From: Antedon mediterranea
Taxonomy: Eukaryota > Animalia > Echinodermata
Length of the DNA: 64,000 nucleotides
Direction: 5' to 3'
Assembly: GCF_964355755.1 (NCBI RefSeq)
Contig: NC_092679.1
Span: 3,068,201 to 3,132,200, forward strand
The notes under the pieces are model-generated. The model had not been told where the DNA came from. It saw only the letters and a program-made list of their open reading frames with translations, and ran no database searches. Each line of letters opens with the position of its first letter. Positions within the stretch are counted from its first letter, which is position 1. This document shows, piece after piece, positions 670-62,590 of this stretch. A program made the translations under genes and the position numbers.

Positions 670-3600
670 ATTATTATCTACAAATGCATTATCACAATCA
701 GAGAAACGAAGAACCCACTTGAGTTTGATTTGGCAATTAGAATCTTGACACTTGGCTGAAAATGAAAGTAGAAATGTAGTTAATGACTTATGAGTAACAA
801 AAAGAGGCTAACCCTTGATGAGGAATACTGTAATTTGTAATTACATTACACATGTGATAAACAGCGCATAGAGACTATTTGTATTTTGCGCTATATAAAT
901 TTAAAAGTTAAAATGACTATAGCGAGGCATTTAATAAAAAGGCAAACTGCCTTAGATTGTGACATGTTTCGAGAAACTATTCTCATCATCAGAACAGTAA
1001 ACAACGCCTAGAGTGCTTATATACCAACAGGACATGTTGTATGTAAATAAGTAAGTAATTAGCATAATAAAAGAACAAGGAATGTAGGCTACAAACAATC
1101 ATATGGCAAGTGTGACACCTAAGTTATAGATTTGTTTGTTCAAGGAAGGTTTACTCCACGAGATGTGGAGGGCTTCCTTGACCTTAAGTTTGAAAACGGA
1201 ATCTGCAGAAATCAGAACGGTGAAGCATTCCGCCTTAGCGAGGACCTCAAACCGTTCTGAATCATGCAGATGTTGAAAAATGTGAGAAGCCTTGTCCCTG
1301 AAATGTTCACGCACCCGCATTGATAACCGTCTATTGGTTTCACCAATATACATGGAATTACATCCCATAAATTTAAAACCATTGTAAATGTACAGTACTT
1401 TTTCACACAGATATCACTTTATACATATTATCACACCTTATCACACCATATTGGAAAGCATCTGCATTGTGTATAATTGAATTTGAAAATGTTTAAAAGT
1501 CTATCATCATACCTATCAGTGTCACGTTAGTGTTGTTATACATACTCTTAGAAATTGTAATTACTTCATTCCTCTAAAACAAAACAAGTAGAAAAGATAA
1601 ATTAAAACAACATAAGAAATTATTCGATTGACAGACGATCAGGGGGCAGATGATCGGGCTTTTTTTTAAAGACGATCGGGTACAAACACGTGCGGACGTT
1701 CGGGCCCAACTTTGTGGACGTTCGGGCTCAACGACTCGGACGATCGGGCCAATATAATTAGACGATCGGTCCATAAAAATAAAGGAAAAACGAATGAATT
1801 TATAATTGTTCACCATAAAATAAATTAAGGGTGTTCTTTCCACGAGTTTGTGATACAAATGTAATAAACTATGTACATTGTAAGATATGGGTCTATCTAT
1901 ACTGTGATATACGCTAAGACTTTATACGAGACATGGACTCATAATCGCCATTTTTGTAAGAGTATTTATTGATCCACACATAGGTGGCAGCATACACGAT
2001 TTAAGTTATGTCAAGTACGTATTACTATATTATTCTGGGAAACACTACATACATACAAATAATGTTAGTGACGATCGGGCCAAACATATAAGACTCGTCT
2101 CTATGGCCCGATTGTCTGTTCACCAATTACTCAATCAAAATATGGAGCCTATGAGGAATAACTTTATATAATGTGTATATAATATTAATATTCTATTTTA
2201 GAAGACATTGTGATATGATTGATACTTCGTATCTAATTATAATTAATATCATAGGGTTTAATGTTTATGCGCAAAATACTTTTTTTCTTCAATAACTTTG
2301 TAACTTCAAAATATTAATATTATATTGTATCTGTCCCTGTGTCATCTTGAGACAAGTTATTTGAGCTTCTAATTGTGTTAATCTAAATATGGATCCAAAA
2401 TCTAAATTTAAATCTGGCTCCAATATGTACAGGGATACAGTAAATGTATTTTCTGTTAATCAATTAATTAATAATATCGAAGAAATTATAAATGTTTAAA
2501 ATAATAATAAAATAAATATGGAATAAAACATTTTTTTAACAAAGAAATTGGGAGCTCAGGTTCATGTGACCAATATGAGGTTGATGATAAATCTGTCAGC
2601 TACCTGTAAGGTTAGAAATGATAAAATAACATATATTAATTCATTTTGAAAGAATATAATAAGTACTAAACTAGGCCTCCTAAATAAATGTAAATATAAA
2701 TAATTATTTTATATTATAATATAGGCCTATATATAAGGCTAGGCCTTTATTGTGCATAAATAATTAAATTATGTTAATTTAAATTACCGTTAATTGGTAC
2801 ACACCACACACACATACAACGCAATTGGTACATCTGTCTGCTTGGCCTATCTACTCTCGACTAGGCCTAAGCCTACCAGCGGTTACCTAGGCCTAGCACT
2901 AGTTTAGAGACTACTACTGTAGGCCTAGCTAGCGGCGGGGAACAGACGATCGGGACCACGGACGATCGGGCCCAAGACGACCGGGCCCAGAAAACGTGGT
3001 CCCGATCGTCTTTGGCGTTGGGCCCGATCGTCTTCGGCGTTGGGCCCGATCGTCCAGTGTTTTCAGAACCACGTTGGGCCTGATCGTCTTACCAGTTGGT
3101 CCCGATCGTCTTAGCGTTGGGCCCGATAGTCGTTTGTGTTATATAAAATAATGTGCCACATTTCATCATTTTTAATTCCTAGTGCTAGTGTCAACGTGCT
3201 TTTCTTGCATAATTAAGATTTTAATTAAAAAGGTTAGATTTTTTTCTGATTTTATCATCCTCTAATTAACACTATCACTACTACTGGTTTTAAGAATTTC
3301 TTACCAATACTCTCCATTTATGAATAAATGTGATTGTTTTGATTGTTATTATTGTGTTGTTTGTATTCGCGTATTTATTTAATTTTCCGAGAATGTTTTG
3401 GGCCCGATCGTCTTGTTTGTTGGGCCCGATCGTCTTGTTTGTTGGGCCCGATCGTCTTGTTTGTTGGGCCCGATCGTCTTGTTTGTTGGGCCCGATCGTC
3501 TTTCACCCTGACTGGGGCTTGATGGGCCCGATCGTCTTTCACCCTTGATGGTCCAGATCGTCTCACGATTTGGGCCCGATCGTCTTTCACCCTGGGGCTT

Positions 3601-3993
3601 GATGGGCCCGATCGTCTTTCACCCTTGATGGGCCCGATAGTCTCACGATTTGGGCCCGATCGTCTTGAAGTGGGCCCGATCGTCTGATAACCCTAGCGGC
3701 CTGGCCATAGCCCTCTACTTACTACTACTAGCTAGGCCTAGGCTAGAGACAGGCTAGGCCTAGTAGGCCTAGGCCTAGTACTAGAGTTAGGCCTAGGCCT
3801 AGGCCTAGGCTAGGCCTACTAGGCCCCTTTTCTCAGCTGTTTGTTAGGCTAGTTTATACAATACAATTAAAGCAAATCTTACAGAAACTGTATACTTAAA
3901 TACACCTGGTTCAAGTGCAGCATTAATTAATTGCAATTTAGTAAAACATAATGCTATAAATAAAGCAAAGTTTAGCTTCCACGTAGAACCCAT
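670..3993 (-). CDS. TMEM87: TMEM87A/B-like (GOLD + 7TM) protein, first three coding exons; gene continues toward or beyond the left edge
   Basis: Exons 3993-3883 (signal peptide MGSTWKLNFALFIALCFTKLQLINAALEPG...), 1573-1513 (RNEVITISKSMYNNTNVTLI) and 755-670 (KCQDSNCQIKLKWVLRFSDCDNAF). All are GT-AG and phase-compatible, and they resemble the TMEM87 N-terminus (K..F.NT.I.L...C...L.I.W.L.S.DC.N). Confidence 0.7.
930..1400 (-). mobile_element. Penelope-like retroelement 3' remnant (GIY-YIG endonuclease fragment)
   Basis: ORF 1368-1099 contains C..MYIGET.R.L..R.REH...HIF.H...E.L.I....P.LN.Q, the PLE GIY-YIG signature. Confidence 0.85.
958..996 (-). ncRNA. Minimal hammerhead ribozyme of a Penelope-like element
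   Basis: Minus strand reads tgtt-CTGATGA-T-GAGAA-tagt-TTCTC-GAAA-CATG-TC-aca, about 100 nt downstream of the GIY-YIG ORF stop in the same orientation. Confidence 0.65.
1626..2124. mobile_element. Non-autonomous DNA transposon with GACGATCGGG subterminal motifs (older copy)
   Basis: Termini gattgacagacgatc ... gattgtctgttcacc; 8-bp flanks aattattc / aattactc; related to 2937-3692. Confidence 0.6.
2937..3692. mobile_element. Non-autonomous DNA transposon with GG termini and 8-bp TSD (Merlin- or Mutator-like)
   Basis: TIRs GGGGAACAGACGATCGGG / CCCGATCGTCTGATAACC; perfect TSD ctagcggc (2929-2936, 3693-3700); many GGGCCCGATCGTC motifs, including a 23-bp tandem array at about 3398-3500. Confidence 0.8.
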
Positions 3994-4079
3994 CTTTTCG
4001 TAAATTTTATCACACATCACCAAAGAATATATATCACTCTTTGACATCACACATACAGTCACACGCAACACATCCACGT

Positions 4080-4330
4080 AACTCGAGAAATTCGTACATC
4101 AGCTGTGTGTCGTATAATATGATTGGTGGTTCAAAGGGATAAACAATTGAACTATCCAATCAAAACTAATGTACAAAGTTTTCTCGCAACATAATTTTAA
4201 TTCTGATAACGCCCTCTTTATTTATAATAGTTGAGTTTTTTTTTACAAGGAAGAAATAAAAAGTTAGAGTGACATGCGACAAAAATAATCTGATAAACTA
4301 CGAAGAAAACAACGATATACTTAATCCGTA
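4080..4330. promoter_or_regulatory. Probable bidirectional promoter between TMEM87-like and MKKS
   Basis: Head-to-head genes; inverted CCAAT (gattgg at about 4121) and ccaat (about 4156); possible first-exon donor cc|gtaaat near 4328. Confidence 0.4.
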
Positions 4331-4873
4331 AATAATAAATATAACTGCTTTATTGAACTATTGAATTATTAGAACCAGGACTATACGGTGTAATACGCAC
4401 ATTTGTTTTTAGTACAATAGTTTCGGTAGATAATAAATAATTTGCTAGGCCTAGGCTAGCTAGGCCCTAACCTAGCTAGTAGGTAGCCTAGGTACTATAT
4501 TCTAATAGGACTATGGGCCTGGCATGATATGGCCTCTCTACACTACAGTAGTTTATCCTCTTCTACAACTACACACTAGGCTCTAGCCAGGCTAGGCTAC
4601 ATAGTAGGTAAGGCCAATCTACACTAGGCTAGCTAGACCTCAGCTCAGCCTACATATAAATAAAATATAATTCTAGAGTAGGGCCAGGCCGGGTTAACTT
4701 GGTCCATATTTCTATTTCTACGAGTGATGAGAGAAAAATTAATGATGATATAAATAATGCAATGGGCCTATCTAGTATAAAAATAAAGGGCCCAGATACT
4801 CTATTTCTAAAATTCAAATATATTTTCAATACATTTTTTTTCCTAATCTAGATGCTGGAAGCCTAGAGAAAGA

Positions 4874-5038
4874 ATGTCATTCGTCCAGAAGTATAAAGTT
4901 TCATTTGCAATTATAACTGGATTGGCGATTGTGCACCTTGGTTGGTACTCACTAGCGAACAACTCAACATTCAACAATAAAAAAAGAGAAGCAGGAATCG
5001 TCACGGCAGATTATAAATCAACTAACAGTAAAAAGTGA
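4874..5038 (+). CDS. MKKS upstream microprotein 1 (uMKKS1-like), 54 aa
   Basis: MSFVQKYKVSFAIITGLAIVHLGWYSLANNSTFNNKKREAGIVTADYKSTNSKK; own exon with acceptor ctag|4852 and donor gtatgt at about 5059; YKV...HLGWY resembles human uMKKS1 as recalled. Confidence 0.75.
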   Translation: MSFVQKYKVSFAIITGLAIVHLGWYSLANNSTFNNKKREAGIVTADYKSTNSKK

Positions 5039-5094
5039 CAAATAACAAACCATACGTAGTATGTATGCATATTTGTTGTTGACTTTAAAATTAA

Positions 5095-5395
5095 AGATGT
5101 ATTATCGCCCAAAAACATGAAAAATAAAGATTAATAAAATTAGATTTTGATTAGCCCATTTTGCATTTTTTTTAATAAAGTTATTCACTTCTTATTTCAA
5201 TTTTATAAAAAGACAAAAGAAATTGTTAATGTTAATTTTACTATTAGACAAAAACCATTGTCTGATACACAATTTAGGTATATTTTTTCAGGGAAAATTT
5301 TTTTTTTTTTTTCAAAGTGAATAATTATTATGTGACATTAAAATGGCATATTCAACAAAATTAAAAAAATATTTTTTTAGGGAAACAATATATCT
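5095..5395. mobile_element. Kolobok-type MITE (family C)
   Basis: TTAA|AGATGTATT ... AATATATCT|TTAA. Confidence 0.6.
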
Positions 5396-5835
5396 TTAAG
5401 CTGTTGTTAATTAATTATGATGTTTATTATACTCTATATTTATTTGTTCATTAATAAATAATAACCATGGAATGAGGCTAAACCTTTGAAACAGATTCTG
5501 TACTACTTAAACTCTATATTAAAATAAAAATGTGAAAAAAACAAAAAAAATTAAAAACTACTTTACAGTTACTTTAAAAATACAAAATACGGGCTAAAAT
5601 ACAACTAGACATCAGCCCAAAATATTTATTGAAATTACAGTATTGCAGGCCTTGTCTTTTGAAAATTATAGGTGTGCTACAAATTGCACTCCTCAATACA
5701 TTCAGGGATGCTGTAGGTGTGCTGTTTGTATTTCGGTGTGTAGAAGTTTGCCAAATTTAAATTAAATTTAAATTTAATTTGCCTCAAGGGCAGTTTAGGA
5801 GTGTGTTAAGCGAGTGAGTGAGGAGCTTGGTATTG

Positions 5836-6072
5836 CTGTTGATGAACTTTGAACTTTTCATTGAACTGCAAGAGATTATGATTATGATGTTGTTTGAATG
5901 TAGAATGTATTATTTTTAGTGGATGTAATGTATTGGGTATGTCAGCCAAAAATTTGTATTGAAATTATTGCTGATTGTTGAACTTTGAACCTTTCATTGA
6001 ACTGCAAGAGATATGATTATGTTGTGGTTTGAAAGAATGAATTACTATATTAGTCCATGGAATGTATTGGGT
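5836..6072. repeat. Degenerate ~135-bp tandem duplication
   Basis: gaactttgaac.tttcattgaactgcaagagat...aatgtattgggt occurs twice. Confidence 0.7.
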
Positions 6073-6176
6073 TTTTTTTGGCAGATTTAGTTTTCCTTCA
6101 CTTGGTATTTGTGATCATTATTTGAACGTTTTTATTCCTTAAATTTCAGAAAAGTTGAGTTGCTTTTTTTTGTAAA

Positions 6177-6362
6177 ATGGGTATTGTAAATTGGGTCAAA
6201 CATAACAAGTACGTGTCAGTTGGCATTGGCTTAGTGGTCTTTCATCTTGGCGCATATACATTATTTAAATCTGCATTTTCACCTGAAAAGCGTTGGACAT
6301 CATCTGTCAATTATGGAGCATACAGCAGGTCATACGAAGAGAAACAAGAAACCAAAGAATAG
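6177..6362 (+). CDS. MKKS upstream microprotein 2 (uMKKS2-like), 61 aa
   Basis: MGIVNWVKHNKYVSVGIGLVVFHLGAYTLFKSA...; exon 6150-6362 ends exactly at TAG|gtatat; W..N....GI.....HLG.Y.L..SA resembles human uMKKS2 as recalled. Confidence 0.75.
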   Translation: MGIVNWVKHNKYVSVGIGLVVFHLGAYTLFKSAFSPEKRWTSSVNYGAYSRSYEEKQETKE

Positions 6363-6487
6363 GTATATTTATAATTCTATTTTTATTTTTAATCTAAGTA
6401 TAGAGTTGGAGAATTTTACTAAAAATATGAAATTTACACATAAATGTGTGATTAAAGTGTATATGTAACTTTTATTTTCAGATAATT

Positions 6488-9400
6488 ATGAATAAATCAA
6501 ACATCTCAAAAAGCTTCTCATCAAATTTTGAATCATCCGTTTTGAATAATGAAGATAATTGGTTGGCACTCCAAACATTTAGAAATCTTATCAAATCTTG
6601 CTATGGGCCTAATGGCCATCTCAAGACTGTCCAGCATCATAGTGGTGGCCAGGTAACCTTAACATCCAGCTCTTACAACCTCTTAAGGAATCTACCAATT
6701 AAAAGAGCATTTCTGAGATTGCTGGTGACTGCTGTTACTGAGCACCTGCGATTATTCAGCGACGGAGGACTCTTTGTTGCGCTGTTTGCTTCGGAACTCA
6801 TTTCTCTTTCTTGTTTTACTGATCTTCCACGGATATTATGCTGTGACGTTAACAGCATACTATTAAGTTGGTGCAAAGAATTTATGAGTATCTGCAAGAT
6901 TCCTGTTGACATCAGCAGTATGGACCAGATGATGGCAGTGGTTCGATCAGTCATATCAACCAAGCCAGCTTGCTCATTTTCTCAGACAGACATCTTGCAA
7001 ATTTCGAGTTTGATCATACAAGCTTTCTTAAAAACTCTGCCACCTGCTGACTCTCATAAACTCATGGATCAATTTGTCCAATATATCGAGGTCGGAGGTT
7101 ACGATACAGCGAACTCACAGATTGTTGATGGTGTGTTGTTTCAGCTTCCAAATGACCTTCAAGAGGACTTCCTTCCACCAGAAGAGAGTTTTCATTCTGG
7201 TTCTTTAAAGATTGCCCTCTTCAAAATCTCTTTAGCAGGAGATACTGACGATTTTGTGAACACCGTTTACGAGGTTACAGAAGGGTTATCCCCAATGGAT
7301 GTTGTTACTCAAAAGCTCTTTGACATTGCAAACAAACTGATTGAAGATTCCGTTGATGTTTTAGCCTGTCAAAAAGTGATTCACCCAAGCCTTAAGAAGT
7401 TTCTTACAAAGAATAGAATATTAGTAATTGACCGTCTGTCTGTTGTTAATATTGGCGCCATTGAGACTCTTACAGGTGACTTTTATACTTTAATATTTCT
7501 TTAAACTAGATTTTGAATTGAATTGAAATATATATTTATACTGGGTAACCTCTTCAGTCAAAGACTGGTCTCCCAGGGGGCCCAGTTGGTGATCAGTGGC
7601 TGTGATGTACTAATACACCGGGGTCACCCCCTACTCGTCTCAAAAGATGTACTAGGTTTTTTAAAGTGCACATGAGCTATGTGTGTACACTGGGCCTACG
7701 GTTTATAGGCCTTATCCGAGAAGACTCGTTCTACCACCAGAACCATGGAGTGAGTGAGCCTCGAACCCCTGCCGATGTAATGGCTACGTAATTACGGTTC
7801 CACTGTCTTAACCGCTCGGCCACTCACTCACATTTATATTGTGAATGTTTAATGCAAATAAAAACCCATTAGACTCACAAGCTATAAAGTTTTGTTTTAT
7901 TGATTTTAAAAAAAAGTATTTTCATGATCCGCTATGCAACTATTATTAAGTTTAACAAACATTCTGCAAATGCTCTTATGTTTCTGAGCATGCTCAGTTG
8001 TATGGTCCTAAAACGTGTTGTTATTTTTTCTTTTTTTCATTTTTATTCACCAAGGATAGCCCAATAATTCTGTATCATGCTGAAATTCAAAAATAAATTT
8101 TAATAAATTATTTTGTTTAAAAGGTGCACAGTGTATTTCTAGCTTGCATTGGTCCGACCGAATGGAGGGTATGTATGGAAGACTGGAGAAGCTTGAAAGA
8201 GCAAGTTATTTCAAGAAAAGCTATTACCATTTTGTGAATACTGCTACTCCGGTGTGTACATTGATTTTGTGTAGTATACTTCAAGAAACATTGACTGAAA
8301 TAAAGGTAACAATAAGCCAATCTTATGTCAGTTACAAATATTTACATATTTTTTGATTAATATTTATTATTTGTATTTTTATCTGTTTTAACCTCTGTTT
8401 ACACTAGTTTGACAAAAAAAGTGTGATGTGTCCAAATATGGTAGTGATATGACAACATCATGTCCATATATGGGCATATCATATTTTTTTCGCATAGAGT
8501 TTGATAGTGTAGACAGACCTTTAGACTTTAGAGGTGTAAACTAATTCTTCTCTATTTTTTATTTTCACCCTTTTAGAGTGTTTGTATGGTTGCGCAAAAT
8601 GTCTTGCGAAGCCTGCTTGTAAATCCAGTCGTTTTACCTGGTGCCGGGTGCTTTGAAGCGTTGCTTACTGCTTATTTGAAACAGAAAGTAAGTGTATGAT
8701 GTAAGGTGTGAATGGGGTTTAAACAGGGAAATCCAATTACACTTTAAAGTGAGATACTTAGTATTTCACTTAAGTGAGATACTAAATATTTCACTTAAGT
8801 GAGATACTAAGTATTTTACTTAAGTGAAATATAAAGTATTTCACTTAAGTGAGATACTCAGATACAAATAAAACTATTCAAGCGCCGACTCGATCGCTAT
8901 CGTAGTCGTACGTCACTTTACAATATACAATGAGTTAAAAAGAAAAGAAATACAAACAATTTTTATATAGTACAGTTATAACTGACAAATTTTGTACCAA
9001 AATTTAAAAATAGTAATATTAAAAACTCGAAATAAAAAGATGTCTATACCGCAACAAAACAAAAACATTACATGCTATTTGCGAGTTGTATAAGATTGTT
9101 TCGTATTTTCCCTGATCTTGTTAGGTATACTGTACAAAATTTGTCAAGACACAATAAAACATTATTACTAATGGGAAGTGTATCCTTCCCAGAACATATA
9201 ACATTTTTCGTCATTGTTACTGGTGCAGAATGTTTCCCAAACATCTAACTCGTCTTGTTTAATTATATTTAACTGTTCTGCTCTTACACATTGTAATGCA
9301 TCACAGCTAAATAAAAAGTGAGATATGTCCTCTATATTTCCAGAGTTACATAATGAACAGAGACCATCATTCTCCATGGTCCATTTACTTAATTTAAAAT

Positions 9401-11332
9401 TTAAAGGTAGAGTATTGGAACGGGCTTGAAATTTAAAACGAGTACCATTAAAATTTGTTTTATCAAGTAAAAACTTTTCAAGATCCGGCTTTGATTTTAA
9501 CTTTGCATAAGAAGATAGCGACGATTTAGATGCGAGGTCCTCTGACCATTGATTATTTACATTATCTAAAATATTTTGTTTCAGTAAATTAAACCAATTT
9601 TCCATAGTGCGATTTTTAATAACATTGTTAAAAATATGCATGCATTCAAATCTACAGAAAGTGGTTCGTACACAACTAAGGAATTTAAACCGTAATTCTT
9701 TTGTGTTGTAATTAAGCATAGTCTTGTACAATAGGTTGGGCCATCGTTTCTCATTTAACCCGACTAAACGTTCAAAGAATTTTAGTTGTAATATGTTATG
9801 AGATACGGTTAAGGGTATCCATCCTAAATCTCCATATAAGGCCACTTTAGGTGTATACGCTGGTGCTTTTAGAATATATCGTGCCATCTGCATTTGAAGC
9901 CGTTCCAGTCTATCGATATCTAAATTGGACCCTCCAGTCCAAACAGAGCAAGCATAAATAATAGAAGGTAAAAATTTTGTTTTCCATAAGATATTTCCGT
10001 GGGCATCATAATTAATACATTATTTAAATCTAAAGCTGTCTACACTATCAATCTTTATGTGACAAAAAAAGGTCCAAGGACCTTTGCCAACAACTAGTTC
10101 AATCGCTCGTGCTGTCACATATTGATTACGCCAATGCATTGTATTATGGTCTACCTGCTAATACCCTTGCTCCAATGAAGAGGTTACTGCACCAAGCTGC
10201 GAAAATAATTGTCAGGAAAGGTCGGTATGACAGTGCAACTAACGCCATGCGATCCTTGCACTGGCTTCCGATGTCTAATAGATGTCAATTCAAAATAGCG
10301 TATCTTGTATGGCGTTCGCTTAAAGGTTCCGCTCCAAGTTACCTGAGAGATATTCTTACTGTGCGGAATGTTTCTCGTAGTACTCGTTCAAGCACCAGCA
10401 ATTATAACCTGACAATCCCACGAACTAAACGAAAGACATTTGCTGACCGTTCGTTCGCCGTAGCAGGACCCAAAATTTGGAACAGATTACCAAGTCACAT
10501 TAAACACTTAGACGACTATAATCAGTTTAAAAAACATTTAAAAGCACTATATTTCAAACAATGTTACGATACTAATTGATGTGAAGCGCCGCTGATTATA
10601 ATTAAATGTTGTATAAATGTGCGCTATACAAGTAATAATAATAATAATAATAATAATGTGCCCATATATGGACATGATATTTGGGCACACCACACTTTTT
10701 TTCCAAACTAATTTAATAGTGTAGACAGAGCTTTAGAGAGTTGAAACCACTGAGAAGCATACTTTATTTTGTGTTTACAAAAAAATATTAATTAATTGTA
10801 AATTAATTAATTTGTAAAAATATAGAGTAAATTTATGCATAGTGTCTTGTTTTTTTTTTTGTCAAAGGTGTTGAATGTTGAAAATGCACTATGTTCAAAT
10901 ATTGGTTGTTCTATCTACCAGTTTAAACTGACAGCTAAGAATTTTATCGTGGCTCTTCAAACCGTTGCTATTAGTAACCAAAATGGTTACCCCGTCACCA
11001 ACATCGGCCAATCACATCTGTGGATAGTTCCTGATCAACATAAACTAGATTCTGATTGGATCGTTGATAGAGTTTGTAACTGTGGACTGTGTACATTTGA
11101 TAGTTCACAGAAAACTGTGGAATTAAAAAATACCAATATGGAACTGTTTAGTGAAACTAGTGAGGTAAGGGGGGAAATCAAAACTAGTTTTGACACCAAA
11201 ACCATTGTTTTAAAGCTCAACAAAGATGCAGTCATTGATCAATATGATATAAAAATGAATGGGCTGAATATTGCCGTTGAAACTGGCAACCTTATTCTTC
11301 GTATAAATCATGCTTTTTCTATTTCTGAATGA
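6488..11332 (+). CDS. MKKS: McKusick-Kaufman/Bardet-Biedl syndrome 6 chaperonin-like protein (~581 aa)
   Basis: Exons 6488-7475, 8124-8305, 8577-8687, 10868-11332, all phase-consistent; motifs SCYGPNGHLK, FSDGGLF, CQKVIHPSLK, LPGAGCFE, C.CGL. Confidence 0.93.
7542..7832 (-). mobile_element. tRNA-derived SINE
   Basis: Minus-strand head gtgagtgagTGGCCGAGCGGttaag...GGTTCGAGGct has Pol III A and B boxes; second copy at about 30022-30242. Confidence 0.8.
8391..8520. mobile_element. Harbinger/Tourist-like MITE family A
   Basis: Matches family consensus AGCTCTGTCTACACTATCAAACT...AGTTTGATAGTGTAGACAGAGCT. Confidence 0.75.
8740..8862. repeat. Palindromic ~29-bp tandem repeat (CACTTAAGTG core)
   Basis: cacttaagtgagatactaagtattt repeated about 4 times; same motif as the element at 43505-45185. 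Confidence 0.7.
9060..10020 (-). mobile_element. LINE (non-LTR) ORF2 C-terminal fragment
   Basis: ORF 9893-9168 has ALYGDLGW.PL and a C..C....EDI.HFLF.C zinc knuckle typical of LINE ORF2 C-termini. Confidence 0.85.
10071..10657 (+). mobile_element. 5'-truncated L2/CR1-group LINE with (TAA)n tail, inserted in a family-A MITE (10034-10732)
   Basis: LSHIDYANALYYGLP...LHWLP...R.F..AGPKIWN.LP...FKK.LK; (taa)n tail at 10633-10657; MITE halves on both sides. Confidence 0.9.
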
Positions 11333-11455
11333 AAATGTGATCATAGTTGGCAAAGAAAGGAATTGTGTTATGTTTCACAATCTATGAGAACAAAAAAAGT
11401 CATCCCGATAATTACACATGGTTTCAAGAGTACATTAAAATATCCAGCAATTTAA

Positions 11456-11955
11456 AGATGTATTGTCCCTTTGATTCCCAAAAAATATAAAAAAAGATTT
11501 CAAAAAGTCATTTTGAAGTATCATAATAGTTATTAACTTTCCCCAAAAATTTGTAGAAAAAAAAATCATTTGACTGAAATACAGACTTTGACTTCCAGTG
11601 ACATTTTTTGGTCAAAACATATCTCATAATGCAACGCGCTTGTTTGGCTACTCTGTATGCATAATCATAAACTTCCTGTGTGAAAACACCTTCTCAACCG
11701 TGACGAGTTGTAAACAATCCTAAGGGCATCATGCTTAATGCATACTCGTACTTTGAAATCTTTGTTTACTTTCGCCGCGACGATTTTCCAGACGAAATGT
11801 AATCAAACTAATTTACCTGTTAATTACATAAACTTGTTGTTTTTGGCTCGAAATTTCGACTTAAAGTGAATAACTTTAATATTACTTTGATATGGCCAAT
11901 TTAAATTTAGAATATTTTGACCTTCATTTTTTGTGTTTCAAGGGACAATACATCT
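11456..11955. mobile_element. Kolobok-type MITE (family C)
   Basis: TTAA|AGATGTATTGTCCCT ... AGGGACAATACATCT|TTAA; partial copies at about 52277 and 63922. Confidence 0.8.
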
Positions 11956-13483: not shown

Positions 13484-16023
13484 ATGACTTCCTTACTCAA
13501 TTGGTGGATCATCTTCCACGTGATATTGTGGACTCGTGTAAAAAGCTATACTAATAAACCTAACATCATAGTCTTCCTGGCTGATGACATGGGCTATGCT
13601 GATCTGCAGAGTTTTGGAAACCCGTTATCGCGTACGCCACACGTAGACGCTCTCGAAGCAGGAGGCCTAAAGCTGACACAGATGTACAGTGCCTCAGCAA
13701 TCTGCAGCCCCGCAAGGTTAGAGAAGTTATAATTATAGAGAATATTCCGTGAATACAATATAACGAGTATACAATAATATTTAGTAGTAGTAGGCCTAAT
13801 AGGCCAAGGGTTAGACCTACGTAGCCACGTAACTTAAGGTACGCAATAGCAATCCAGTATTAACTACAATAGGCCTAAAGCCATGGTTCCCACACTAGCG
13901 ACGCAACCTACGCAACGTAAGAAAATGCCCTTCAAATAATGTTTTTCCCCGCCTGCGTGAAATCAAACCTGCGATGTTTGCAGCACTCATTGCGTCATCG
14001 GTTCCCACTTGTGATTACGCAATACAACACTTTGCGTCGATACGTCGCTGCGTTGCGTTCTAGTGGGAACCAAGCTTAAGGACCAATCTTGATGAAGTTT
14101 GGTGCGGATCTCCGTGGGTGTGTCACAGGGAGGTGTCAAAGTAGTATAACATATCCATTACGTGTTGATTTTTTTTTTCAGGGCAGCGTTACTAACGGGG
14201 CGCTATCCTGTTCGTAGTGGAGTCTGGACTCCAGACGACGGGCAACTCGTGTTTGCACCCAAGTCCGTGTATGGTCTTCCTCTTAACGAAACGCTTATTC
14301 CAGAAATGCTAGCCCAACAGGGTTACAAATCAGCTATTGTCGGCAAATGGCACCTTGGTGTTGGGCTTAATAAGAAATACCTGCCTACAAACCAAGGCTT
14401 CCACCATTATTTTGGAATGCCATACAGTCATGAGGGATGCGTATGTGCTGCATGTTTTTATCCAGACGTAGAATGTGTGAACCCTAACGTGTATAATAAT
14501 TCTAATGCTGTGACTTGTCCATTGTTATTAGAAGAAGATATTATTGAGCAGCCGATTAATTTGACATCTTTAGCTGAACGACAGACTAGAGCCGCTAGAA
14601 GCTGGATACGGGAATTCGTCTGCGAAGGAAGCCCTTTCTTTATGTACTATTCCACTCACCATCCACATACCCCGCAGTTTGCTAACAGACACAATGAGGA
14701 CGCAACACTGGGCGGACAATACACCGATGCACTGGCAGAGCTGGATTGGGAACTAGGAGAAATAATGGACGAGTTAAGAATAAACAACATAATAGAAAAT
14801 ACGTTAATATTATTCACATCTGATAATGGGTACGTTAATAAAATAATGATATGCCTATAATGAATAAGAAGATACAATTAAAAAAGATGATTCTCAGTTG
14901 AGGTGCAACGCAAGGACGTAGACGATGCAAGCGAGTTGACCAATGACAAGCGACAGTTCGAATAACAAATCGCTTGTGATTGATCGAATTACTTACGTTA
15001 CGTCCTTGTGTTGCGTCTGTAGTGTGAAACAAGCATGAAAATGCGCTTACGTCCTTGTGTTGCATTCCTATAGTGGGAACCAAGATTTATGCTGCATAAA
15101 GTGCTCATAAAATTAAAATGTTCTTAAAATTTCCTTTGCAATTGTGTAGACCTGATAGAGGAAGCCATACACTCGGTGGATTTTCTGGAGCAATGCGATG
15201 TGGAAAGTATACTACTTTTGACGGCGGGTCGCGAGTACCGACCATTGCGCACTGGCCTGGTCACATCCAACCGGGTGTGTCTAGAGAATTGCTGAGTCAT
15301 CTAGATATATGGCCGACTCTTAGGCGGTTAAGTGGTTCTTCTGCTGAAGATTTTGATGTCATCCTGGATGGGTATGATGTCACAGACGTCTTATTAAATG
15401 GAAAAGAGGTTAGTTCCATGGTTATTTACAGTTGGTTAGAGATTACTCGCATATTTATTTCTGATGAAAAATATTAACAGTTATCAGTTATATAAGGAGG
15501 CATACTGATAAGAAATGTAAGGTGTTTAGTGACGCATATTTTCTTTCAGAGTCCACGAAAGTCGATCTTGTATTACAATGTTGTAACAGACCCAGAAATA
15601 GGAGCATACGCAGTGAGGAACACTCAGTACAAAGCACATTTCTTTGTGGAAAAAGTTGTGTACACAGATGCACTGGATAACGATGAGATGTGTAGATCCG
15701 ATAATTTCACTGTTGATGCATTTTCACCGCCAGCTTTGTACGATTTGTTACTGGATCCCGAGGAACGGTTTGATATCAGCGGTAACTCTGAGGACATAGT
15801 GCAACTTATGACTAAACTGATGGAGGAAGAGTCTCGTAGAGTGACATTTGGGACAAGTGTTATTGGACCGTCGAATGTAACTTTAAAACTGTGTTGCAAT
15901 GAGGAATGTGAAGAACCCACTGTTGATTGTTGTGACTGTCCTTCTTTATACAATGACGATCTTTTACCATTACCATCTTTACCATACGCAGACTGCACAA
16001 CACAAAATCATTTCACAAGATAA
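13484..16023 (+). CDS. ARSA: Arylsulfatase A-like sulfatase (~537 aa, signal peptide)
   Basis: Exons 13484-13716, 14182-14829, 15150-15408, 15550-16023; motifs PNIIVFLADDMGY.D, CSPAR|AALLTGR, GKWHLG, FTSDNG. Confidence 0.85.
13879..14077. mobile_element. Harbinger-like MITE family B
   Basis: TIR (agc)TTGGTTCCCAC...GTGGGAACCAAGCT with acgcaacg motifs; other copies at about 14890-15086, 30694-30852 and 35025-35208. Confidence 0.7.
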
Positions 16024-20172: not shown

Positions 20173-21078
20173 CTATTCTTCTTCACTTCTTGATACGTCA
20201 TCTCTGTAATCTTGCAGTTCGTCGTCATCATTGAACCTAACTTTGGTTTGTACAGTAGTGAGGCTGTGTTCTTCTTCTTCGTTGTGCAAGCCAGAGTAAG
20301 GGAACGAGTATGACATTCCGGAAAAGCGCAGTGTAATCTTCATAGCAATTATCTGTACGATGATGACGATAATTGCTAGCATACAATGCCAAGCAAATAT
20401 CATTGAGAAGAATTTCACATTCAGGTGGTCATCTTCATCCCACGAATAATCGCTAAGAGGATGATAGAGGGTGCAGCCAATCTGCAACATCCAAGATCCC
20501 TGGATAAAAGTAGCCCATATACGTAACCATGGTAACACATCATCTTTCGGCAGCCAAATTTCTCCTAACGTAAACAGCAAACAGAGGAACACCATTATTA
20601 CCTGTATAACATGCATTCGTATGTTCAGTGCTGATCGACCGTGTAGATGGAAAGAAAACAGCGTGCATTCGATGAAAAAAGCAAACGCTAGAAAAACGTT
20701 AGCCCACCTTTCTTGACCTTTAAACCAGGTTCCGACGGCAATTTTTGCCGCTCCGTACATCGCAAAGCCGGCCCACATAGTACAATGCTGCCAAATGCTT
20801 GAGTATATAAACACACCGTCTTTGTTGAACAGTCTCCACCTCCATGTTTTGTAAACTTGTTCGCCTATAAGCCCACTAAGCGCTAAGACCAGCACGAGAA
20901 TCCCTTCAACCGGCAGTCGTCGAAGAAGGAGATGTAGTTTAGAATATCTGTTATTACCTTTTCGTCCACCACCACCAATTCTTGGGTAAGTTGAATTGAA
21001 AACTCTTTGTAAATTCCACCATACCGACAACGCCATGAACATAATACCAGAAGCGGCATGCCCAAAAAATCCACCCAT
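20173..21078 (-). CDS. TMEM45: TMEM45B-like (DUF716) membrane protein, intronless CDS
   Basis: MGGFFGHAASG..F...WW, EG, WQHCTM, F.FHLHGR..L...H, QGSW..QIG..LY.P, F.WH. Confidence 0.88.
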   Translation of the reverse strand: MGGFFGHAASGIMFMALSVWWNLQRVFNSTYPRIGGGGRKGNNRYSKLHLLLRRLPVEGILVLVLALSGLIGEQVYKTWRWRLFNKDGVFIYSSIWQHCTMWAGFAMYGAAKIAVGTWFKGQERWANVFLAFAFFIECTLFSFHLHGRSALNIRMHVIQVIMVFLCLLFTLGEIWLPKDDVLPWLRIWATFIQGSWMLQIGCTLYHPLSDYSWDEDDHLNVKFFSMIFAWHCMLAIIVIIVQIIAMKITLRFSGMSYSFPYSGLHNEEEEHSLTTVQTKVRFNDDDELQDYRDDVSRSEEE

Positions 21079-23298: not shown

Positions 23299-24189
23299 TT
23301 ATAAACTATTGTCCGACCAGTTATTTTGTGATCTGTTCCCGCCTTGTAAACGTTCCAAATACATAGTGTCACTTCGTTGTTCATTATCACTGTCTTCCCC
23401 TATCTCGAGCTGAGAATATCCTCTCTTGTGTCCGAAGGTGAACTTCATTGCTATTGCCACGATCAAATACAACATCACCACTGATATAACATTTCCAATA
23501 CAATGCCAGGCGAAAATCATTGTAAAGAATTTCACACTTTGGTCGTCTGGTTTCCATTGGAATCGCCCGGTTCGTATCGGATACAATGCGCAGCCAACCT
23601 GAATCAACCAAGTACCATTTACAAACGTAGCCCACATTCTCATAAAAGGTAAGAACTTGTCCTTTTTCATCCATATCTCCATTCCCGAAAATAATACACA
23701 CAGTAAGATAGCAATTAACAATAAAACATGCAGTTTTGTGTTGAGTACATCGCGGTCTTTTAAGTGGTTTAGAAACACGATACTCTGAATGAAAAAAGAA
23801 AATGTCCTGAAAACTGGTATCCATGGTTTTAGATTGACGCAGCAGCACGCGGCCAGGATCTTAACCAATCCAAAGATCCAGAATGCCACCCAGATTGTAC
23901 AATGTTGCCATACATTAGCCTCTATAAAGTTTCCTTCCTCGTCAAACATCTTCCAGCGCGTGTAAGGGTACATATTTTCCGCTATGAACCCAAATGCTGT
24001 ACACAGACAAATTATGATACCTTCAAGTGGTATACGCCGACACAGCCTGAGAGGTCTTGACGGTACTCCAGCCCTTCCATCCCGTTCATACTTGTTTCGT
24101 AAGGTGTTGAACGATAATTGGAGCACCCACCAAGATGCCCAGATTAGAAAGAAAAACCCAGAGCCTACGTGGCCTAGCCAATTGCCCAT
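23299..24189 (-). CDS. TMEM45: TMEM45B-like (DUF716) membrane protein, tandem paralog, intronless CDS
   Basis: MGNWLGHVGSGFFFL..WW, PLEG, WQHCTI, GTWLIQVG..LYP, FAWHC. Confidence 0.88.
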   Translation of the reverse strand: MGNWLGHVGSGFFFLIWASWWVLQLSFNTLRNKYERDGRAGVPSRPLRLCRRIPLEGIIICLCTAFGFIAENMYPYTRWKMFDEEGNFIEANVWQHCTIWVAFWIFGLVKILAACCCVNLKPWIPVFRTFSFFIQSIVFLNHLKDRDVLNTKLHVLLLIAILLCVLFSGMEIWMKKDKFLPFMRMWATFVNGTWLIQVGCALYPIRTGRFQWKPDDQSVKFFTMIFAWHCIGNVISVVMLYLIVAIAMKFTFGHKRGYSQLEIGEDSDNEQRSDTMYLERLQGGNRSQNNWSDNSL

Positions 24190-36277: not shown

Positions 36278-40055
<3,778 letters not shown>

Positions 40056-60276: not shown

Positions 60277-62590
60277 CTAAATAAATGACCTGCTATCATT
60301 TCTACCCTTCATCATCATGTTCTTAATTCTAGGGACAAACTTAGTTGGTATTGTTTGTAAATTCTTGCACATTGTCTTAAAATTAAACGACATAATTTGA
60401 CCGTTGCCAAAATCGCATTCCTGAAGCGATCCATCTCGTTTACACGTACTAACATCAGTTGAAAAGTTAGCGTCAAAATGAAGTCTCCGTTCGTATGACA
60501 TTACAGGCACACCATTCATTTTTACCACTTTTTCTTTAACCACACACACGTTATAAAGAAACAGTTTGAGTTTACGAAAGACGGCAAGATCAGATTCAAA
60601 ATTCGGTCCGTACTCTTTTATGTGATCGTGGAAACGTTTTTTAAAATAGTTATAAAGTTTCATGTCGAGGAGATTCCAGTTGCCTATCTTTTGAACGAGA
60701 TCTTCGGACAATGGCACTTTAAAAGTGCGTTTCTTTTTGGGCAAATAGACAATATCATCAAATTTCCAGCACATTACCTTCTTTAATATTATCAACGATT
60801 CATCAAATAGTTCCGTTATCATAACAAGATCGAAATCTTTGTCCAAGTTTTTGATGGATTTATCCACTACAAATGTGTTAACATCAAGCAATGGGTCGAC
60901 TCCCAAATCAAACATTTGTTGGTTATGACAAACAAAAGGTTGTTTGCTGCGTTTGCAGTTTTCGAAAGGATTTCGCATCCATTCTGTTAATTTTCTTGTC
61001 TTATTTCCACCATGGCCGGCGACGCCAAAATAATCAAATGCGGATTCAAACTGTGTTATAGGGTTACGTATTATAGTTACATACATCGGGTTTTTTTTCA
61101 TCAAAGAGTCTAGAATAGTTCTGTTGTACCGGGTATGTATGCTAAACATATTGTACTTATATTTGCTGTAGTCGCCTACACGAACTCCCTTCGGTGGAAC
61201 TAGAACTTTTACCGTATTGTTATTCATAAAATGATCTCCAATAGGTTTTGTTCTTTTTGGTATAAACACTTGTAATTTGTTTAGAAGTGCAAAATTCTGC
61301 ATTATCCACCATATTGTCGATCCACCAGTTTTGTGAGTCTTCAAAAAGACAACAGTTTTCTTTTTTACACAATTCTTTGTTTTATTAATCCATTGACTGT
61401 CATGACTCCTTAAAAATAATATATGAAAATTGTTTAAACAAAATTAAGAAAAAAGAAATGTTGTTCATTTTCTTTTGATGAATTTTTAGCTATACAGCTT
61501 CATGTTTTTTCCACTCTTCAAATGATTTTAAAAAGTTACCTAACATAAGTATAGAGCGTATATGGGGGTGGATGGAGGTCACAGTAAGTTCATTGAACTT
61601 TAAGTCGTGACCCCTGCTTCAGTATAATAATAACATGCTACAGAGTAGACTAAAATATATGTTTAAAAATGAGATATTTACCTTGTTTGTGTTAAATTTT
61701 TTCTGTTTCTAGCAGAAAGTTTGGTTAATGAGAGTTTCCATAATAAATGCATTGATAAAACAGCTAATATCATCGTAATAATGAAAAACCGAAGAACCTG
61801 GGAAAGATTCAAAATCATTAGTAGTTATTTCTTTAGTTAGAATAATTATAATTCTATTGTTTAATTAACATTTTCAATTTTAATAATATGTCTATTTAAA
61901 ATACACAGTTCAGGACTCTTTTAAAAGAAACTTCAAAAACAATATATTGACATTGTAGGGGTGGGGTGAGAAAATTATACAATGAACAAAAAGTATCAAT
62001 AATTTTGATTTTAAGCCCTGTCTACACTATCAAACTAGTTTCATAAAAAAAAGTGTGATGTGCCTAAATATGGTAGTGATATGCTTAAATAGGGTAATAT
62101 CAATAATTTTGATTTTAAGCCCTGTCTACACTACCAAACTAGTTTCACAAAAAAAAGTGTGATGTGCCTAAATATGGTAGTGATATGCTTAAATAGGGTA
62201 ATATCAATAATTTTGATTTTAAGCCCTGTCTACACTATCAAACTAGTTTCACAAAAAAAAGTGTGATTTGCCTAAATATGGTAGCTAGTGATATGCTTAA
62301 ATAGGGTAATATCAATAATTTTGATTTTAAGCCCTGTCTACACAAAAAAAAGTGTGATGTGCCTAAATATGGTAGTGATATGCTTAAATAGGGTAATATC
62401 AATAATTTTGATTTTAAGCCCTGTCTACACTATCAAACTAGTTTCACAAAAAAAAGTGTGATGTGCCAAAATATGGTAGTGGTATGCTTAAATATGGTAT
62501 TGATATGACATCCTCATTGTCTTTGTCACATAAACTTTGATAGTGTAGACAGAGCTTTCCGACTATCCTTACCTTTTTCTTGGTAAACAT
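60277..62590 (-). CDS. GAL3ST: Galactose-3-O-sulfotransferase-like type II membrane protein (~421 aa)
   Basis: Exons 62590-62573, 61797-61682 (TM anchor), 61408-60277; PAPS-binding VFLKTHKTGGST, TIIRNP..QFESAF.YF, FDLG, FDLVMITE.FDESL. Confidence 0.9.
61994..62556. repeat. Five tandem ~90-105-bp units made of flank plus the left half of a family-A MITE
   Basis: tatcaataattttgattttaagccctgtctacac...gtagtgatatgcttaaatagggtaa x5, ending in one right TIR. Confidence 0.9.

Follow-up and report, generated by a model that had tools for sequence, protein, structure and literature searches.

The polycistronic MKKS locus of human and mouse was reportedly described by Akimoto et al. in 2013. As known from these two mammals, it comprises uMKKS0, uMKKS1 (63 amino acids (aa), also micro-MKKS63), uMKKS2 (50 aa) and MKKS/BBS6 itself (570 aa) (PMC11837024). 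The range reported for these upstream open reading frames (uORFs) covers mammals (PMC11837024), amniotes in an alignment list (PMC4568590) and at least the lobe-finned fish (10.1101/2024.11.14.623419), and the range in PMC7530721 may already reach beyond vertebrates. Literature searches on BBS6 or MKKS in invertebrates, which covered few subscription papers, met no invertebrate link between MKKS and the uORFs. Here we describe a locus with two small open reading frames (ORF1 and ORF2) ahead of an MKKS-like frame in a stretch of 64,000 nucleotides (nt) from the echinoderm Antedon mediterranea (NCBI RefSeq assembly GCF_964355755.1, contig NC_092679.1, positions 3,068,201 to 3,132,200, forward strand; hereafter the window, in whose numbering all positions are given). 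This is probably an invertebrate orthologue of the human uMKKS1-uMKKS2-MKKS locus, one that would serve mainly as a microprotein message with MKKS as its weak last cistron.

Functional data on the human locus concern chiefly the small proteins. When tagged, the products of both uORFs are mitochondrial (PMC7066179); in reporters the uORFs repress MKKS (PMC11837024), and this repression depends partly on peptide sequence (PMC7530721). The uMKKS1 product, LOC128706665, appears in UniProt as 'alternative protein MKKS', encoded in the MKKS 5' untranslated region (UTR); it is predicted to be linked with components of complex IV or with its assembly factors, and has been termed functionally unrelated to MKKS (10.1101/2024.10.01.615885). 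It has been tied to Alzheimer's disease and to respiration, which falls when the 63-aa peptide is knocked out; in human brain, small and main ORF are correlated at r = 0.15, three of the seven isoforms lack MKKS, and spectra number 14 for MKKS as against thousands for the microprotein (PMC13577902).

Two small ORFs spliced to an MKKS-like frame

Five public sequencing runs match the window, none of them recorded as RNA, and four were compared (X3 excluded). In run X1, a single contig of 2,445 nt aligns at consecutive contig coordinates to 4852-5058, 6150-6360, 6480-7473, 8122-8303 and 10868-11500. A GT-AG exon model (Table 1) reproduces these pieces when a 2-nt AG ambiguity is allowed, and one 111-nt exon of the model, unlisted in the X1 alignment, fills a gap in the contig coordinates exactly. 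Because its contig is spliced, X1 is likely of RNA origin; the other three compared runs, which come from one sample, retain the introns. Both exons that hold the small ORFs are spliced to all four MKKS-like coding exons in one assembled transcript, a preliminary description of the sequence having proposed that the two leader exons are joined to MKKS, and this single short-read contig places a leader with two ORFs of about 50-63 codons on an MKKS-like message. Its 3' UTR continues beyond 11500.

The layout given in that description was likewise confirmed from the sequence. Each of the two leader exons holds one complete small ORF (54 aa and 61 aa), and each peptide has a charged tail and a single predicted hydrophobic helix (mean Kyte-Doolittle hydropathy of the hydrophobic 19-mer 1.64 in ORF1 and 1.66 in ORF2). 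The ORF2 stop codon forms the final three bases of exon B and abuts the splice donor; behind the 119-nt intron, the chaperonin ATG (6488) lies 6 nt into the exon that starts at 6482. Exon A follows directly on an acceptor AG at 4850-4851 and has its donor GT at 5059. A 4-codon uORF stands ahead of both small ORFs, and by its position it is a candidate counterpart of human uMKKS0. After splicing, 7 nt separate this uORF from ORF1, 47 nt ORF1 from ORF2, and 6 nt ORF2 from MKKS. The start contexts of ORF1 and ORF2 both show A at -3, to which that of ORF2 adds G at +4. Two ATG-initiated ORFs of at least 54 codons arose in 3 of 5,000 shuffled 426-nt leaders, and four ATGs precede MKKS where 8.4 are expected, a shortfall that is not significant (P = 0.06). 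The base composition shows a CpG observed-to-expected ratio of 0.74 at a GC content of about 35%, values that differ from those usual in vertebrate DNA.

Upstream, the leader extends 5' of 4852, the X1 contig having 69 more bases there that are unplaced. A first exon fitted to these bases is a guess: its donor at 4608 is the sole GTRAG or GTATG donor between 2607 and 4851, the 69 nt preceding that donor contain no ATG, and X1 depth is near zero over the corresponding bin.

The spliced leader has two further features. A 17-codon ORF in another frame within ORF2 has a strong start context, and in the spliced mRNA only 2 nt lie between its stop and the MKKS ATG. Additionally, ORF2 and MKKS are in frame after splicing (6360-6362, 6482-6490), with one stop and two sense codons between them, so that readthrough of the ORF2 stop would, hypothetically, yield a membrane-anchored MKKS fusion.

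The AATAAA hexamers that had been pointed out after ORF1 are present (Table 1) but do not exceed background: at least three in 202 nt (5059-5260) also occur in 4 of 30 equally AT-rich segments (shuffle P = 0.028). We accordingly set the hexamers aside as evidence for intronic polyadenylation. Contigs cannot reveal RNA ends, and whereas leader polyadenylation has been demonstrated at the human locus, only the hexamers were read in this one.

The four coding exons make a single 581-aa frame. Its first exon matches the Pfam family Cpn60_TCP1 with an E-value of 4e-32, reaches at most 42.6 bits against the CCT and thermosome models, whose cut-offs are 400-800, and matches CCT structures at E 6e-8 at best. 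Human MKKS has four exons and 570 aa, BBS10 two exons and 723 aa, and BBS12 one exon and 710 aa (PMC2846930). Elimination of the CCT subunits, BBS10 and BBS12 leaves an MKKS/BBS6-like protein as the likely product of the main ORF.

Two of the introns of this gene carry repeats. A 322-nt high-copy repeat (7510-7831) is skipped by contigs of X2 and X4, which pass from 7509 to 7832, and it looks polymorphic for presence or absence. The last intron holds two opposed fragments resembling long interspersed nuclear elements, one at 9168-10019 (minus strand) with a zf-RVT match and one at 10034-10579 (plus strand) that has no Pfam match.

Table 1. Features of the Antedon mediterranea locus, in window coordinates
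Feature	Position	Strand	Evidence
Candidate non-coding first exon (unverified)	4539-4607	+	Guess fitting the 69 unplaced 5' bases of the X1 contig
Leader exon A, 207 nt	4852-5058	+	X1 contig positions 70-276, 0 differences; flanked by AG/GT
4-codon uORF	4852-4866	+	Sequence; stop 7 nt before the ORF1 ATG
ORF1, 54 aa, one predicted transmembrane helix, likely uMKKS1 (LOC128706665, Q9HB66) orthologue	4874-5038	+	Atlas, phmmer, by-eye identities
Intron, 1,091 nt, GT..AG; AATAAA at 5123, 5133 and 5174	5059-6149	+	X1 contig and sequence
Leader exon B, 213 nt	6150-6362	+	X1 contig positions 277-487 and 2-nt AG ambiguity
ORF2, 61 aa, one predicted transmembrane helix, likely uMKKS2 (LOC128706666, V9GZ13) orthologue	6177-6362	+	By-eye identities
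17-codon ORF, other frame within ORF2	6313-6485	+	ATG scan of the spliced model
Intron, 119 nt, GT..AG; three ATGs inside, lost on splicing	6363-6481	+	X1 contig and sequence
MKKS/BBS6-like coding exon 1, 988 coding nt (exon from 6482)	6488-7475	+	Pfam, X1 contig
MKKS-like coding exon 2, 182 nt	8124-8305	+	X1 contig, GT-AG model
MKKS-like coding exon 3, 111 nt	8577-8687	+	GT-AG model; fills contig-coordinate gap
MKKS-like coding exon 4, 465 nt to stop	10868-11332	+	X1 contig, GT-AG model

Affinities of the two small peptides

In the ESM Atlas, ORF1 comes closest to the cluster 'uncharacterized LOC128706665 homolog', with a score of 0.94, a recognition of 2943 and 207 of 256 features, followed by two clusters at 0.92, one chordate and one arthropod; the two best are mostly Chordata and the close third mostly Arthropoda. 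RefSeq-style annotation already includes homologues of LOC128706665. A phmmer search with ORF1 against 1.84 billion proteins gave three matches, among which P0002 (65 aa, 43% identity, E 2.4e-5) is a credible relative; the other two, P0001 (3,161 aa) and P0003 (1,355 aa), are long or repetitive proteins and were set aside as chance matches. A word-seeded protein search with ORF1 gave no candidate, and P0002 was the sole match in a protein search with a three-sequence profile.

For comparison with human uMKKS1 (63 aa) and uMKKS2 (50 aa), whose sequences were taken from a supplement of PMC13577902, we used ungapped alignments made by eye and anchored on the common His-Leu-Gly, a procedure that yields no E-value. 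The mammalian motifs that the preliminary description had given for uMKKS1 and uMKKS2 agree with the human sequences in that supplement. ORF1 shares 12 of 54 residues with human uMKKS1 as against 7 of 48 with uMKKS2, while ORF2, in register from Met1, shares 14 of 50 with uMKKS2 as against 9 of 61 with uMKKS1; overall identity of the two peptides to their human counterparts is 22-28%. ORF2 and uMKKS2 have in common Trp6, Asn10, Gly16-Ile17 and residues after the motif, and both are without the motif's Trp. ORF1 is therefore likely an orthologue of uMKKS1 (LOC128706665) and ORF2 likely one of uMKKS2 (LOC128706666), as judged from these matches, and as the best pairing is reciprocal the human order would be kept.

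Other affinities were considered and rejected. ORF1 scored 12.1 bits (E 0.26) as NDUFA1/MWFE (PF15879), below the Pfam gathering score of 27 bits, and neither small ORF has a Pfam match to SMIM4 or DUF4516 (BRAWNIN), for which the Atlas gives 0.83 at rank 26. A search of the PDB with the peptides disclosed no relative (best E 0.28). An AlphaFold model of ORF1 from three sequences is helical and uninformative (mean predicted local distance difference test 67.9, predicted template modelling score 0.35). Scans of metagenome contigs disclosed no second locus, with 0 of 158 pattern matches confirmed for the MKKS exon and 0 of 37 for the peptide profile.

The two small peptides also resemble each other (BLASTP E 9e-5), which suggests that they stem from an old tandem duplication. 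Full shuffling attained their score in 1 of 5,000 trials, and shuffling that left the hydrophobic segment where it was did so in 18 of 5,000; for P0002 against ORF2, the corresponding counts are 0 and 1 of 5,000. They are mutual best matches among 88 window ORFs of similar size, and an H-L-G-x-Y core is common to both and to both human peptides. The window contains 89 ATG ORFs with a length of 45-70 aa; a hydrophobic 19-mer occurs in 23 of them, and only ORF1 and ORF2 among these have H-L-G-x-Y, a motif picked after the two had been seen. The accessible parts of the cited literature contain no statement that uMKKS1 and uMKKS2 are paralogous.

The motif also points to a likely relative in Drosophila. 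The Drosophila table of small ORFs (PMC4568590, supplement 13) has one H-L-G-W match, CG15922 (67 aa, Q9VDL5). The motif alone is weak evidence because its three matches in the mouse table are all unrelated (the uMKKS1 row is absent from that table); the zebrafish table has no motif match. The assignment of CG15922 thus depends on flanking matches. In ungapped alignments by eye it matches ORF1 at 11 positions within residues 2-33 and human uMKKS1 at 10 of 19 around H-L-G-W, and it is likely a fly member of the uMKKS1 family. In contrast to the Antedon peptides, it is annotated alone, on a two-exon transcript of 344 nt. A literature search for CG15922 by name returned only unrelated methylation-probe matches. 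BBS6 is undetectable in insects (PMC12491567).

Weighing the orthology

The combined evidence makes it likely that an mRNA for three proteins, in the same order as in human, is older than vertebrates. Several points weigh against this. First, the transcript is attested by a single short-read contig, from a single run that is classed as RNA by a guess, and the contig could merge two overlapping bicistronic isoforms. Second, no vertebrate uMKKS1 was among the ORF1 phmmer matches in 1.84 billion proteins. Third, for ORF2 a word-seeded protein search gave no candidate, neither Pfam nor NCBIfam has a family, and the best Atlas cluster stands at 0.86 with a recognition of 2206, short of the 2300 mark, none reaching at least 0.9; its assignment is a comparison by eye that has no E-value. 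Fourth, the main ORF is assigned to MKKS by elimination. Fifth, the small ORFs show no significant constraint: a comparison of X1 with the window gives 0 differences over the 351 nt of these two ORFs and 11 over 994 nt of the first MKKS exon (Fisher P = 0.077), six of the ten differences listed for that exon being synonymous, and two DNA runs have one unplaced difference in 4869-5134.

The earlier claim of sequence similarity to uMKKS1 and uMKKS2 holds for ORF1 (Atlas 0.94); for ORF2, which has no database match, the identities counted by eye favour it. The broader claim, that both microproteins, their order and their coupling to BBS6 predate vertebrates, fares similarly: order and splicing are kept, but the identity of ORF2 comes without an E-value. 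With the locus known in human and mouse, the invertebrate copy would push its age back. For this one genome the ancient order has good support, whereas the reading of the locus as a functional unit has not.

Translation, function and alternative explanations

By analogy with the human peptides, ORF1 and ORF2 may be mitochondrial membrane proteins that aid respiratory-chain assembly. Given the rules of scanning and re-initiation and the spacings observed, we posit that ORF1 would be made by scanning ribosomes that bypass the 4-codon uORF, while those translating this uORF would skip the ORF1 ATG, which at 7 nt is too close, and re-initiate at the strong ATG of ORF2. Few ribosomes would reach MKKS, 6 nt after the ORF2 stop, whether by leaky scanning or by re-initiation. 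The mRNA would then serve chiefly to make the microproteins, MKKS being carried along at a low dose. This scheme agrees with the human reporter data (PMC11837024). The linkage probably persists through the dependence of MKKS on the common promoter and its tolerance of, or need for, a low dose, and not through joint action.

A bolder version is, in our view, possible but doubtful: the tricistronic mRNA would date from early bilaterians and have stayed intact over half a billion years, the paralogous microproteins would be paired in complex IV assembly at a ratio set by the uORF, and BBS6 would be a throttled third cistron.

The preliminary description had instead seen selection on a unit of cilium chaperonin and mitochondrial microproteins. 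Under such an explanation, the three ORFs would be kept together for co-regulation, with the microproteins reporting the mitochondrial state and setting the dose of the ciliary chaperonin. The apparently very long retention of order and linkage would suit it, as would the partly sequence-dependent repression by a human MKKS uORF (PMC7530721). However, the uMKKS1-like fly gene has its own transcript in a lineage with no detectable BBS6 (PMC12491567), expression of the small and main ORFs is decoupled in human (r = 0.15; PMC13577902), and LOC128706665 has been called unrelated to MKKS in function (10.1101/2024.10.01.615885). Selection on a joint unit is not supported, and we hold co-regulation to be unlikely.

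A second alternative, which we judge improbable, denies the tricistronic molecule altogether: an ORF1-ORF2 mRNA and an ORF2-MKKS mRNA would have been merged by the assembler over their common exon B. A contig across two genes indeed proves no single transcript, the short-read contig is the sole transcript evidence, and human has short isoforms with the microproteins only (PMC13577902); yet one unbranched contig spans both GT-AG junctions and all MKKS exons, and the canonical human mRNA has the uORFs and MKKS together (PMC11837024). Under a third alternative, ORF2 would have arisen from ORF1 by a separate duplication in this lineage, and the two-peptide layout would be convergent with the vertebrate one. 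This might explain why ORF2 resembles ORF1 and P0002 and has no database relative, but its closer match to human uMKKS2 than to uMKKS1, in register from Met1, and the residues and missing motif Trp that it shares with uMKKS2 leave this improbable as well.

Genomic context

Downstream of the MKKS-like gene lie a sulfatase (14150-16023, plus strand), two tandem single-exon DUF716 (TMEM45-like) genes (20173-21078 and 23299-24189, both minus), a branched-chain keto-acid dehydrogenase E1-alpha (BCKDHA-like; 36656-40055, plus) and a galactose-3-O-sulfotransferase (60277-61443, minus). To our knowledge, neither the sulfatase, the E1-alpha nor the sulfotransferase is a neighbour of human MKKS. The motif TAGGCCTA has 43 clustered copies (2722-4446 and elsewhere), with several clusters upstream of genes; such clustering is reminiscent of echinoderm or hemichordate DNA. 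Short arrays of GGGCCCGATCGTC-type units in both orientations (1630-1780, 2080-2120, 2940-3135 and 3395-3690) are possibly the termini of a non-autonomous transposon. A short frame at 1099-1413 (minus strand) resembles by eye what is left of a GIY-YIG endonuclease from a Penelope-type element; it has no Pfam match.

Comparison with known systems

Polycistronic mRNAs retained across animal phyla are rare. An intact invertebrate copy of this one would make the uORFs much older, and it flags the H-L-G-x-Y/W residues for mutagenesis. Additionally, CG15922, as a likely orthologue in an animal without BBS6, would make the function of uMKKS1 testable genetically apart from the cilia gene, and paralogy of uMKKS1 and uMKKS2 offers a first testable idea for uMKKS2, a peptide without a known role.

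The Antedon locus is the same as that of human and mouse in having two small hydrophobic ORFs in order before MKKS, with matching motifs and register, an extra tiny uORF upstream and four MKKS coding exons. In mouse, too, an intron precedes the uMKKS2 exon, the start lying 42 nt into that exon as against 27 nt for ORF2. The 119-nt intron after the ORF2 stop and the distance of 6 nt to the MKKS ATG set this locus apart from the human one. In human, uMKKS2 and the MKKS start lie in one exon, with about 220 nt between the end of uMKKS2 and that start. The frames differ as well: in human it is uMKKS1 that is in frame with MKKS (10.1101/2025.07.27.667088), whereas here it is ORF2 and not ORF1.

The nearest working analogue is the sloth1-sloth2 pair of Drosophila, the counterparts of SMIM4 and C12orf73/BRAWNIN, in which leaky scanning balances the two products (PMC9681215). 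There, too, distantly paralogous single-helix mitochondrial peptides share one ancient transcript, although they belong to another sequence family and are joined by no third, large ORF. In jawed vertebrates the sloth1-sloth2 pair has come apart (PMC9681215), whereas the MKKS locus is still joined. If the bolder version of our reading is true, the ORF1-ORF2 pair would be the complex IV counterpart of complex III's Sloth1/Sloth2.

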